This document shows, piece by piece, positions 1-32,904 of a DNA stretch of 64,000 bases. Below the pieces are notes generated by a model. That model worked only from the letters and a program-made list of their open reading frames with translations. It searched no databases and had not been told where the DNA came from. Position numbers and translations under genes: made by a program. Location: assembly GCF_000255295.1 (NCBI RefSeq), contig NC_017030.1, forward strand, positions 6,358,328 through 6,422,327, given 5' to 3'. Positions within the stretch are counted from its first letter, which is position 1, and every line of letters starts with the position of its first letter. The DNA is from Corallococcus coralloides DSM 2259 (GTDB lineage Bacteria; Myxococcota; Myxococcia; Myxococcales; Myxococcaceae).

Positions 1-825
1 CGCGGCCGGCTGCCAGACGTCCCCTGGCAGGGCGAACACCGGCCGGCCCTGCGCCTGCGCCGCCTCCGCCGTGTACAGCGCCCCGGAGCCCTCCCCCGCC
101 CGCATCACCAGCACCGCATCCGACGCGCCAGAAATGAGTCGGTTGCGCCGGGGGAAGGTCGTCGTGCTCGCCCGGACTCCCGGCGGCAGCTCGCTGAAGT
201 ACACCCCGCCCCGCTCGAGGAAGTGGGGCAGCAGCCGGGCCTGGGCGGGGTCCAACGCGTCCAGCGCGGAGCCCAGGAAGGCCCACGTCTCCGCGCCCAC
301 ATCCAGCGCGCCCCAGTGGCAGGCCCGGTCCACGCCCTCCGCCGCGCCCGACACCACCCCTACCCCGGCCTCCGCCACCTTCCGGGCGAACGTGCGCGCG
401 AACGGCAGGAAGCCCTGATCCGGATGACGGCTGCCCACCATCGCCAGCCTGCGCCGGGGAGGTCCCGGGTGGCCCAGGTAGAACAGCAGCGGAGGCGCGT
501 CCTCCAGCCCCACCAGCCGGGAGGGGTACGGCGGCGAGCCCGCGAAGGCCACCTGGAGGCCCGATTGGGCACAGGCCTCCTCCGTCCGGGACGCCAGGGC
601 GTCCAGCGATGCGACGGCGGCCAGCCGCTGACGGACGGTCGCGGGCACCGGCACGTCCGCCACCCAGTCCCGCACGGGCACGGCCGCGAGCCGGGACAGC
701 GCCCCACCCGCGAATGCGCGCACCGCATCCAACGTCCGGGGCCCCAGGCCGGCAATGGCCCAGAGCGCCAGGGTGGCGCGCTGCTCGTCCCAGTGTAGGT
801 GCGTATCCGTGTTCGTGTCCGCCAT
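1..825 (-). CDS. dprA: DNA processing protein DprA (Smf), partial; the C-terminal part runs off the window start
   Basis: Hand translation of the minus strand from ATG (cat at 823-825) gives MADTNTDTHLHWDEQRATLALWAIAGLGPRTLDAVRAF...RRLAMVGSRHPDQGFLPFARTFARKVAEAGVGVVSGAAEGVDRACHWGAL...RRNRLISGASDAVLVMRAGEGSGALYTAEAAQAQGRPVF. These are typical DprA Rossmann-fold motifs. It is absent from the ORF track because there is no stop before the window edge. High GC3 in this frame. Confidence 0.75.
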   Translation of the reverse strand, partial: MADTNTDTHLHWDEQRATLALWAIAGLGPRTLDAVRAFAGGALSRLAAVPVRDWVADVPVPATVRQRLAAVASLDALASRTEEACAQSGLQVAFAGSPPYPSRLVGLEDAPPLLFYLGHPGPPRRRLAMVGSRHPDQGFLPFARTFARKVAEAGVGVVSGAAEGVDRACHWGALDVGAETWAFLGSALDALDPAQARLLPHFLERGGVYFSELPPGVRASTTTFPRRNRLISGASDAVLVMRAGEGSGALYTAEAAQAQGRPVFALPGDVWQPAA

Positions 826-29547: not shown

Positions 29548-30548
29548 GGGCTGGCGCTTCCAGCTCCTTGCGGATCACGGCCCTGGACCCGCTTGCGACC
29601 GCGGGCCTGCTTCAACTGCGCCTCGTACACCGTTCCCTCTTTGGCGAACTGCTGGAGCTCGCGCTCCACCAGCGCATTGCCCTCTGGCGGGGACCAGCCT
29701 TCCGTCACCGCCCGCCGCAGCGCTTCCTGTGCCACCCGCGTCTCCTGGGCCGCGCGCTTCACGCACGCCATCCAGAACCAGGCCTCCGCCCGCGCCGGCC
29801 CAGGACCCACGCTGCGCGCCTGCTCCAGGTACTTGAGCGCCTCCGGCTGCTGCTTGCGCAGGTAGTGCGACACCCCCATGCCCGTCAGCGCCCAGGCGTT
29901 GTTCTTCTCCTTCTCCTGGGACAGCACCAACTGGAACTGCTGCGAAGCGCCGATGGCGTTCTGGGACGCCAGCATCGACTGGCCCAGCTTCAGGGTGGCC
30001 GCCACGTCCAGCGGCTCCAACCGGCGCTGCGCCGCGATCTGCGCGGCCCCACCGGACGGAGGAGGCACGGGAGCCTGCGCCTGACGCTGCTCGGGTGCCT
30101 GCGCCGACGCGGGCGTCAGCGTCGGAGTCAGCGCGGCCCCCTGCTCCGTCGCCCGGAGCACCAGCATCCGGTTCTTGGGCAGGGCCGGGGAGTCGCAGCT
30201 GTCCTCCAGCTTCACCACGCCGCCCAGCGCCCGCTCCTCCACGTTGTAGACGAGCATCACCGGGAAGCTGCGCGACGGGGTGCAGGTGTCCCCTGTCTGA
30301 CAGAGCGTGAGCTCGCCCAGGAAGACGTTGCCCTGGAAGTCCCCCGTCAGGATCTGCTCGGCGACCGGGCGCTGGCAGGGCCCCCCGGCCGGCGCCGTGC
30401 CGACGAGATGCTCCCCGTCCGAGCGCAACTCGATGGGGCCGAAGGCATCTGCCTGGTAGGTACTGTTCATCTGCGGACCCGCCCAGGCGAATCCGGAGGC
30501 GAGGCAGGCTACCGCCGCGAGAGCCAATGTTGGGGTCGGGAGCGACAT
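29544..30548 (-). CDS. Secreted protein with a C-terminal TPR-like region, co-operonic with the STK
   Basis: Signal peptide MSLPTPTLALAAVACLASGFAWA (cat at 30546-30548). The stop overlaps the kinase start by 4 bp. Confidence 0.6.
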   Translation of the reverse strand: MSLPTPTLALAAVACLASGFAWAGPQMNSTYQADAFGPIELRSDGEHLVGTAPAGGPCQRPVAEQILTGDFQGNVFLGELTLCQTGDTCTPSRSFPVMLVYNVEERALGGVVKLEDSCDSPALPKNRMLVLRATEQGAALTPTLTPASAQAPEQRQAQAPVPPPSGGAAQIAAQRRLEPLDVAATLKLGQSMLASQNAIGASQQFQLVLSQEKEKNNAWALTGMGVSHYLRKQQPEALKYLEQARSVGPGPARAEAWFWMACVKRAAQETRVAQEALRRAVTEGWSPPEGNALVERELQQFAKEGTVYEAQLKQARGRKRVQGRDPQGAGSASP

Positions 30549-30699
30549 GTCGGGGACCCGGGCATCATAGAAGTCCACGGGGCGGCTTGTAAACGCGCGA
30601 GGACGGCTTGACCGCACGCTTCTCCATCCTTATCATTTTCCCAGAACGCCCTGGGATTTTCCCAGTAATTCTAAGGACTTGCAGCACGATTTGAGTGGT

Positions 30700-30908
30700 A
30701 AAGGTCTGTTCCCTGCGGGGTGCGTGATGCCCAGCAGAAATTCGAACCGATACGTCCATTCCGGGGTCCGTTTCGGTCGCCATGTGCAAGCCCTCCCCCT
30801 TCACCGGGGATGAGGGAAGCCTGCGGTGACATGATTTCGGTCCCCACCTGGCTTCTAAGGGTTCAATGGACGCTGGACACACGGCTCGGCGGGGGACTCT
30901 TTCTTTGG
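30700..30908 (+). ncRNA. ssrS: Probable 6S RNA (SsrS) upstream of the 5-formyl-THF cyclo-ligase gene
   Basis: Lower-GC non-coding island directly 5' of the ygfA homologue, the conserved ssrS-ygfA arrangement. Segments resemble E. coli 6S: GAaCCGAUAcguCCAUuCC (cf. GAGCCGAUAUUUCAUACCAC) and AAGGGUUCAAuGGacgcuggACAcacGGCUcGGCGGgg (cf. AAGGGUUCAAGGGUUACAGCCUGCGGCGGC). Boundaries approximate. Confidence 0.5.
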
Positions 30909-30918
30909 AGCGGCGGCG

Positions 30919-31548
30919 GTGAGCGAGACGGCGGTGGATACGGCGGCGGCGGCGGAGAAGAAGGTAACGCTTCGTGAGGAACTGACGGCGCGCCGCAAGG
31001 CGATGACCAATGACCTCATCGACGAGCGGGGCCTCAAGGTCCAGTCTCGATTCCTGGCATCGCCCTATTACGACAAGGCGCGGACGGTGGCGCTCTACGC
31101 CCCCATCCGGGGCGAAGTGCCCACCCGGGACATCCTCATCGCGGCGTTGCAGGACGAGAAGATCGTCTGCTACCCGCTGTCCCACGTGCACGGGCGCATC
31201 CTGGCCTTCCGGGCCATCAAGTCGGAGAGCGAGTTGGAGCCGGGACGCCTGGGCGTCCGTGAGCCCACGAACTCCTCGGACCTGATTCCGGTGGATCAGA
31301 TCGACCTGTTCGTGGTGCCCGGCCTGGGCTTCAGCCCGGACGGCAAGCGGCTGGGGCGCGGCGGTGGCTACTACGACGCCACCCTCAAGGCGGCCAGTGC
31401 GCGCAGCCGCCGGGTGGGCCTGGCCTTCAACGATCAGATCGTCCAGGCGCTGCCCACGACGAGCGACGACGTGGACATGGACCAGATCGTCACGGAGAGC
31501 CAGACGCTGCGCGGCCTCTACCGCAGCTTCGACTTTCTCGACACCTGA
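30919..31548 (+). CDS. ygfA: 5-formyltetrahydrofolate cyclo-ligase (MTHFS)
   Basis: Family layout. Conserved GxGxSxDGxRxGxGxGYYD (VPGLGFSPDGKRLGRGGGYYD). GTG start. Confidence 0.85.
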   Translation: MSETAVDTAAAAEKKVTLREELTARRKAMTNDLIDERGLKVQSRFLASPYYDKARTVALYAPIRGEVPTRDILIAALQDEKIVCYPLSHVHGRILAFRAIKSESELEPGRLGVREPTNSSDLIPVDQIDLFVVPGLGFSPDGKRLGRGGGYYDATLKAASARSRRVGLAFNDQIVQALPTTSDDVDMDQIVTESQTLRGLYRSFDFLDT

Positions 31549-31641
31549 GCTGTAGGACAGGCGGGGTGACAGCCACGGGTGGGGCGGACATGGAAGTCCC
31601 GCCCTGCCCGTCGTCTTTTTTGGGCTAGTGTCCGCGGCGCC

Positions 31642-32904
31642 ATGAACCCGGACGCACTGCGCAAGGCGACCCCCGAAGAACAGTTCGAAGAAGTCACTCG
31701 CGGCACCGTGGATTTGCACGTGCCGGAGGACCTGAAGAAGAAGCTCCAGCGCTCGTATGACAAGGGCAAGCCGCTCATCATCAAGGCGGGCTTCGACCCC
31801 AGCCGTCCCGACCTGCACCTGGGCCACACGCTGCTGCTCACGCGCATGCGGCGCTTCCAGGAGTTCGGCCACACGGTGGTGTTCCTCATCGGTGACTTCA
31901 CCGCGCTCATCGGGGACCCGTCCGGCAAGAACGCGGCCCGGCCTCCCCTCACCCGCGAGCAGGTGAAGGTCAACTCGGAGACGTACAAGCAGCAGGTCTT
32001 CAAGGTCCTGGACCCGGACAAGACGGTGGTGAAGTTCAACTCGGAGTGGCTCGACGCGCTGGGCACCGAGGGGATGATCCGCCTGGCCGCGCGCTACTCC
32101 GTGCAGCGCATGCTGGAGCGCGACGACTTCAAGAAGCGCTACCGGGAGAACACCTCCATCGCCATCCACGAGTTCCTCTACCCGCTGCTGCAAGGCTACG
32201 ACTCCGTGGCGCTGAAGGCGGACGTGGAGCTGGGCGCGACGGATCAGCTCTTCAACCTGCTCGTCGGCCGTCAGCTGATGAAGGAGGAGGGCATGGAGCC
32301 GCAGGTCATCATGACCGGCCCCATCCTGGAGGGCCTGGACGCGAAGCTGGTGGACGGCGTCATCACCGGCAACAAGATGTCCAAGAGCCTGGACAACTAC
32401 GTGGGCATCGACGAGCCGGCGGACAACATCTTCGGCAAGTTGATGAGCATCACGGACGACCTGATGTGGCGGTACTACAAGCTCCTCTCCGCCATGCCGC
32501 TCAAGCAGGTGCTGGAGCTGGAGGAGAAGACGAAGTCCGGCGAGGCGCACCCCAAGGCCGCGAAGGTGGCCTTCGCGCAGGAGATGGCCGCGCGCTTCCA
32601 GGGTGAGGAGGCCGGCCGCAAGGCGGCGGAGGACTTCGAGAAGCGCTTCGCCAAGAAGGAGCTGTCCACGGAGGACCTGCCGCTCGTGGAGATTTCGCTC
32701 GCGGGCGCGGAGAAGCTGCTCGTCACGAAGCTGCTGCCGGAGACGAAGTTCGTCGCCTCCGCCACCGAGGCTCGCAAGATGATGGGCCAGGGCGGCGTGA
32801 AGGTGAACGGTGAGAAGGTCACCGACCCCAAGGCGGAGCTGGGGGCCGGCGAGTACACCGTGCAGGTGGGCAAGCTGAAGGTCACGCGGGTGAAGTTGTC
32901 CTGA
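31642..32904 (+). CDS. tyrS: Tyrosine--tRNA ligase (class I, with C-terminal S4 domain)
   Basis: HIGH motif (PDLHLGHT), KMSKS, C-terminal S4-like region ([10 protein letters not shown]). Start trimmed to MNPDALRK. Confidence 0.85.

Follow-up and report, generated by a model that had tools for sequence, protein, structure and literature searches.

The plus strand of a Corallococcus genome almost certainly encodes 6S RNA (ssrS) at positions 30707-30899 of the window, i.e., the stretch of 64 kb that was analysed here. By mimicking an open promoter, this small RNA sequesters RNA polymerase. The gene described here is a conventional 6S RNA in its textbook context, and as such an already known kind of feature. 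A sequence-only reading of the same DNA had proposed 6S RNA at 30700-30908, and the match to the Rfam family RF00013 (6S/SsrS) falls inside that interval. The 3' end of the match at 30899 also agrees with that reading's expectation of a transcript stopping short of 30919. Annotation pipelines that run Rfam would detect the gene, and its importance beyond correct annotation is small, 6S being among the best-known bacterial housekeeping RNAs. A search of the literature found no paper on myxobacterial 6S RNA.

The identification is based on a scan in which each of the 4227 Rfam families was run over the whole 64 kb at its gathering threshold, and RF00013 was the sole family to score above threshold. 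It did so with one match, full-length and without truncation, at 68.3 bits compared with a gathering score of 46.4; the covariance-model search that the sequence-only reading had named as a check thus came out in favour of its proposal. In a permissive Rfam search (E ≤ 1) of positions 30540-30960, 6S was again the only match and no other RNA family or riboswitch was found, so that neither a riboswitch nor any other described leader element comes into question. No tRNA or tmRNA genes were found across the 64-kb window.

The 193-nt RNA is predicted to fold with a minimum free energy of -89.5 kcal/mol into a single long and interrupted helix, closed at its ends by pairing of nt 2-10 with nt 183-191; this is the end-to-end fold anticipated from the sequence. 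Dinucleotide-shuffled sequences average -75.0 ± 4.4 kcal/mol, corresponding to a z-score of -3.32, and none of 200 shuffles was as stable. The minimum free energy fold partly shuts the central bubble by means of a 3-bp CCA/UGG helix. An extra helix inside the bubble is common in 6S fold predictions, and the one predicted here is not in conflict with the 6S model. When the Rfam consensus structure is projected onto the window sequence, 42 of its 50 pairs are canonical and 8 are non-canonical, and the stems and bubble strands take the positions given in Table 1.

Table 1 Features of the ssrS locus (window coordinates; nt, numbering within the 6S RNA)
Feature	Position	Strand	Basis or remark
Putative sigma-70-type promoter of the ssrS(-ygfA) transcript, TTGACC-17 nt-TATCAT	30608-30636	+	Consensus scan
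5' leader, -10 element to 6S 5' end (~63 nt of transcript)	30637-30706	+	
6S RNA (ssrS), 193 nt	30707-30899	+	RF00013, model 1-187 of 187, 68.3 bits, E 2.3e-11
Closing stem, nt 2-19 with nt 175-191		+	Rfam projection
Internal stem, nt 33-42 with nt 154-162		+	Rfam projection
Terminal stem-loop		+	Rfam projection
Central bubble, 5' strand GAUACGUCCAUUCC, nt 43-56	30749-30762	+	Unpaired in Rfam projection
Central bubble, 3' strand ACCUGGCUUCUAAG, nt 140-153	30846-30859	+	Unpaired in Rfam projection
U-rich tract TTTCTTT	30900-30906	+	Directly 3' of closing strand
GGAG Shine-Dalgarno of cyclo-ligase gene	30907-30910	+	Read from sequence; 8 nt before GTG
5-formyltetrahydrofolate cyclo-ligase gene (ygfA/fau homologue), ssrS syntenic partner	30919-31548	+	PF01812, E 1.3e-38, 133 bits, profile 1-186 of 186
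GC-rich 15-bp hairpin (31575-31611), then CGUC and U6 (31616-31621)	31575-31621	+	After cyclo-ligase stop codon

Genomic setting and likeness to known 6S RNAs

The RNA lies in the intergenic space 30550-30918, between a minus-strand gene for a TPR-repeat/signal-peptide protein (TPR matches weak, likely ATG near 30548) and a plus-strand ORF that begins with GTG 19 nt downstream of the 6S 3' end. The product of this ORF matches PF01812 over the full profile, in agreement with the earlier assignment of a 5-formyl-THF cyclo-ligase gene directly downstream, and is 99% identical to the protein of Corallococcus coralloides KYC2213; ~6 kb of surrounding DNA are ~95% identical. The tyrosyl-tRNA synthetase gene (tyrS) comes after the cyclo-ligase gene. 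The low-GC island described in the sequence-only reading is real: measured over 200 nt at a time, GC content is 0.555-0.615 across 30500-30899, whereas the coding sequence before 30500 is mostly at 0.67-0.77 and the cyclo-ligase gene at ~0.65-0.70.

The annotated order in E. coli K-12 is zapA, ssrS, fau, all on one strand. The cyclo-ligase gene is thus immediately downstream and on the same strand in E. coli and in the window alike, whereas the upstream gene is zapA, on the same strand, in E. coli and the divergent TPR-protein gene in the window, and the gap between 6S and the cyclo-ligase start is 75 nt in E. coli compared with 19 nt here. E. coli 6S RNA (ssrS, b2911; RF00013) is 183 nt long compared with 193 nt for the window RNA, and both are rods with a central bubble; 117 of 214 aligned columns agree, a global identity of ~55%. 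Two blocks are common to the RNAs at homologous positions, namely CCGAU, the pRNA-start context at the bubble's 5' edge, and, on the internal stem's 3' side, AAGGGUUCAA. Of the two stretches that the sequence-only reading had likened to E. coli 6S, AAGGGTTCAA (30857-30866) indeed recurs in E. coli K-12 ssrS as an identical 10-mer at the homologous place (nt 141 there, nt 151 in the window RNA), which taken alone is mildly unusual, a match of this kind being reached in 59 of 2000 shuffles. The other, GGCTCGGCGG (30884-30893), which had been read as a closing hairpin, makes up the closing stem's 3' strand in the RF00013 alignment and forms no hairpin of its own.

Linkage to ygfA/fau is typical of 6S genes, but not obligatory. 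B. subtilis has two 6S paralogues without ygfA linkage, whereas the window holds a single 6S match in 64 kb.

The ssrS-ygfA linkage is highly conserved, and 6S RNAs comprise three conserved domains with G-C pairs flanking the bubble (PMC4064990). Coxiella burnetii 6S RNA, from another phylum, resembles the window RNA in its three conserved domains and bubble-flanking G-C pairs, and differs from it in having been shown by Northern blot and RNA polymerase binding (PMC4064990), whereas the window RNA is known from sequence.

Conservation and covariation among relatives

For comparison, 78 loci coding for cyclo-ligase relatives were used, with one genome per species. Of 20 diverse loci searched with RF00013, 17 have an above-threshold match immediately 5' of the cyclo-ligase gene; these include Myxococcus, Pyxidicoccus, Cystobacter, Hyalangium, Vitiosangium and several uncultured Myxococcaceae, and also two Anaeromyxobacteraceae and one alphaproteobacterial MAG. 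An nhmmer profile made from the RF00013 matches places the RNA directly before the cyclo-ligase gene at 72 of the 78 loci, where a contig end truncates one of the copies, and the ssrS-ygfA synteny that had been recognized in the window therefore extends to these 72. The RNA and its placement before the cyclo-ligase gene are conserved across Myxococcaceae and Anaeromyxobacter relatives.

To count base pairs, 57 distinct sequences were aligned with MAFFT, i.e., not fitted to the model, and the Rfam structure was laid over them. Paired cells amount to 81.8%; sliding the 3' partners by 1-3 columns lowers this to 38-53%. In thirteen pairs both partners have changed; compensatory cells number 90, compared with 46.6 ± 4.5 in shuffles, and the covariation score is 0.121 compared with 0.02-0.06 for the slid versions. 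The signal is consistent along all helices, the closing-stem helices being 92-99% paired across the 57 sequences. An independent RNAalifold prediction from 16 sequences returned the same rod, with 11 compensatory pairs. The covariation support is moderate, because the sequences are mostly from close relatives.

Sequence constraint is pronounced around the central bubble. The CCACCU of its 3' strand does not vary in the 57 sequences, and the C-G/G-C pairs flanking the bubble (alignment columns 44-179, 45-178, 60-160, 61-159 and 62-158) are retained in 54-57 of them. U45 (30751), in the 5' strand, corresponds by homology to U44, where pRNA synthesis starts in E. coli, and in the surrounding CCGAU C41 and C42 are invariant, whereas G43, A44 and T45 are at least 90% conserved. 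The predicted pRNA reads 5'-AUCGGUUCGAAUU..., in fuller form 5'-AUCGGUUCGAAUUUCUGCUG, with AUCGGUUCGAA as its 5' beginning.

These data bear on two other readings of the region. GC-rich intergenic DNA folds stably in any case, as is seen from the shuffle average of -75 kcal/mol, and 8 of the 50 model pairs are non-canonical; both points would fit a chance covariance-model match in readily folding DNA, with no functional RNA. However, the E value is 2.3e-11, the region is a lower-GC island relative to its flanks, compensatory changes are present, and the RNA recurs at the same place in 72 loci, as far as Anaeromyxobacter, where the cyclo-ligase protein is 41-43% identical. This conservation effectively refutes a chance match, to which we assign a negligible probability.

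Mechanical ORFs of 44, 58 and 85 amino acids overlap the 6S region, and one of these, either the 85-aa ORF at 30720-30977 (+) or the 58-aa ORF at 30671-30847 (-), might be taken to encode a small protein. Both do exist as reading frames, but indel lengths among the homologues are not divisible by three, variation clusters in loops and in paired, compensating positions, and the 85-aa ORF runs out of frame into the beginning of the cyclo-ligase gene, all of which makes a coding role exceedingly improbable. Long spurious ORFs are the norm in DNA of ~70% GC. On the opposite strand, a mechanical ORF of 661 amino acids spans the 6S gene, the cyclo-ligase gene and the start of tyrS (30565-32550, -); it is a typical spurious ORF, and none of the ORFs overlapping the 6S RNA is supported. 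The earlier description of the region as ORF-free thus holds loosely, in that none of the overlapping ORFs is supported, and fails literally, given the ORFs of 44, 58, 85 and 661 amino acids.

In the alphaproteobacterial MAG (locus L074), the 6S gene (L074:2786-2944) is directly upstream of the cyclo-ligase gene, and a two-piece (permuted) tmRNA gene (L074:4377-4818) lies ~830 nt past the cyclo-ligase match, ~1.4 kb downstream of 6S.

Proposed function and refolding

The functional steps considered for the window RNA all rest on homology. As in E. coli and B. subtilis, the RNA would mimic an open promoter in the active-site cleft of the housekeeping sigma-A RNA polymerase holoenzyme, and occupancy of the holoenzyme by 6S RNA would damp sigma-A-dependent transcription as nutrients run out. 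In E. coli, pRNA synthesis starts at U44 of 6S RNA and frees the polymerase on outgrowth (PMC3299989). The window RNA would on outgrowth be copied by the polymerase from approximately U45 into a short pRNA, which would unzip the internal stem; the RNA would then refold, possibly via a helix between CGUCCAU and AUGGACG, and the polymerase would be freed.

This helix emerges from constrained folds of the E. coli and window RNAs in which the pRNA template region was blocked. The E. coli RNA adopts its known 9-bp release hairpin, which is not predicted for the window RNA; in the latter, CGUCCAU(U) (nt 47-54) of the 5' bubble strand instead pairs with (A)AUGGACG (nt 159-166) of the 3' strand. The two 8-mers concerned, CGUCCAUU (30753-30760) and AAUGGACG (30865-30872), are perfectly complementary within the 6S RNA. 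Opening of the internal stem would be required for their helix, which could not stack on that stem. Complementarity of CGUCCAU and AUGGACG is kept in 95.5% of cells in the 57 sequences, compared with 16-50% when slid, and double-sided changes in this helix, looked for in the same 57 sequences, number zero. For B. subtilis 6S-1 (bsrA), Beckmann et al. are said to have described in 2012 (EMBO J) how invasion by the pRNA lets the 5' side of the bubble pair with freed nucleotides of the 3' strand in a 'central bubble collapse helix'. The CGUCCAU/AUGGACG pairing would act in the same manner, and by analogy with B. subtilis 6S-1 a 'bubble-collapse' helix is a plausible interpretation of it, put forward as a hypothesis only.

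Promoter, leader and ends of the transcription unit

The putative ssrS promoter agrees with the sigma-70 consensus at 10 of 12 positions, and 0.1 such sites are expected in shuffled sequence. Among the 71 loci whose 6S match is full-length, 68 have a corresponding block 5' of the 6S homologue, which gives 69 of 72 sequences when the window is included, and the spacer of the block is 17 nt in 68 of these 69. The variants among relatives are always TTGAC[C/A] or TTGAAG, with TAnnnT; the Anaeromyxobacter block, for instance, is TTGACA-17-TAGGAT. With the upstream gene divergent, this assigns to ssrS a conserved promoter of its own. At two loci, L011 and L051, the -35/-10 block is missing by apparent deletions and the 6S body is intact; an assembly artefact or replacement of the promoter could account for the loss.

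The promoter lies ~70 nt upstream of the modelled 5' end, which implies a 5' leader and means that the RNA could exceed 193 nt. From the -10 element to where the modelled 6S RNA begins, the window has 70 nt and its relatives have 21-84 nt, with promoter and 6S body fixed at either side, and the leader sequence is poorly conserved. E. coli 6S RNA is processed from a longer transcript that reaches into ygfA (PMC3299989); by analogy, the leader appears dispensable and is probably trimmed off the primary transcript. RNAalifold found no consensus pairs in the 5' leader. Immediately 3' of the ssrS -10 element, at 30640-30665, there is a palindrome, TCCCAG-N6-CTGGGA, together with a third CCCAG; the three segments could form alternative hairpins, or the palindrome could be a DNA operator. 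As an RNA element, the CTGGG/CCCAG hairpin was rejected, since it is paired in 56.8% of cells and this is not above the value for a +1 slide (60%).

At the other end, all lineages examined have a T-run after the 6S RNA, in genomes of ~70% GC, and the longest among relatives comprises 8 uninterrupted T (10 with the last two RNA bases). From the sequence, the U-tract and the closing stem may together act as a leaky terminator or as a 3'-end signal. No intrinsic terminator was detected between ssrS and the cyclo-ligase gene in a terminator scan, and manual comparison of this interval gave only the conserved U-tract; the scan is blank at the 6S 3' end because the 'hairpin' there would be the whole 6S rod. 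E. coli differs in this respect, with Rho-dependent termination inside ygfA (PMC3299989). Past the cyclo-ligase stop codon, the segment 31549-31632 is predicted to fold with -39 kcal/mol, and its hairpin followed by U6 is likely an intrinsic terminator closing the ssrS-ygfA unit. The simple scan missed this hairpin, probably because the T-run starts 4 nt past the stem. The listed tyrS ORF (GTG 31579) overlaps the hairpin, and the true start of tyrS is therefore more likely the ATG at 31643.

The short distance to the start codon (19 nt), the lack of a canonical terminator in between and the position of the promoter upstream of both 6S and the cyclo-ligase gene are all what one would expect if the structured region were a cis-acting 5' UTR of the cyclo-ligase mRNA, e.g., a folate-responsive one, with no separate stable RNA. 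We consider this very improbable, as 6S is the sole Rfam family at E ≤ 1 with zero riboswitch matches, the match is full-length and covaries as 6S, and the conserved U-tract may mark a 3' end. Moreover, the 6S genes of E. coli and Coxiella are also located in the ygfA 'UTR', yet their products are stable RNAs (PMC4064990, PMC3299989).

For the 6S gene, transcription would begin at the TTGACC-17-TATCAT promoter, as its conservation suggests, and the leader of ~63 nt would be trimmed, as suggested by the same comparison; transcription would partly stop at the U-tract, and the remainder would read into the cyclo-ligase gene and stop at 31575-31621. A more far-reaching and doubtful proposal is that the myxobacterial 6S gene is an autonomous unit with its own control layer, or that the leader is retained to give an unusually long 6S RNA. 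The elements of such a unit would be the fixed sigma-A promoter, a leader of 14-77 nt with TCCCAG-N6-CTGGGA at the operator position, and the U-tract 3' end. The proposal draws solely on the conservation of promoter and U-tract, the leader element being poorly conserved; if true, the unit could couple 6S levels and cyclo-ligase read-through to starvation-induced development.

Modestly new for Myxococcota are three details: a conserved distal promoter followed by a leader of variable length, a U-tract that is likewise conserved, and a candidate helix for refolding. With gene coordinates, a conserved promoter, a predicted pRNA start and likely unit ends, the locus provides a clean Myxococcota reference, which may help studies of sigma-A shutdown in myxobacterial starvation and fruiting-body development.

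A second conserved promoter, TTTACA-18-TATGAT at 30593-30564 (-), is divergent and serves the gene of the TPR/signal-peptide protein. The likely ATG of this gene is just 15 nt past the -10 element, which would leave its mRNA almost without a leader. Here, most Myxococcaceae loci retain two blocks, CATCATA and TTGTAAACG.
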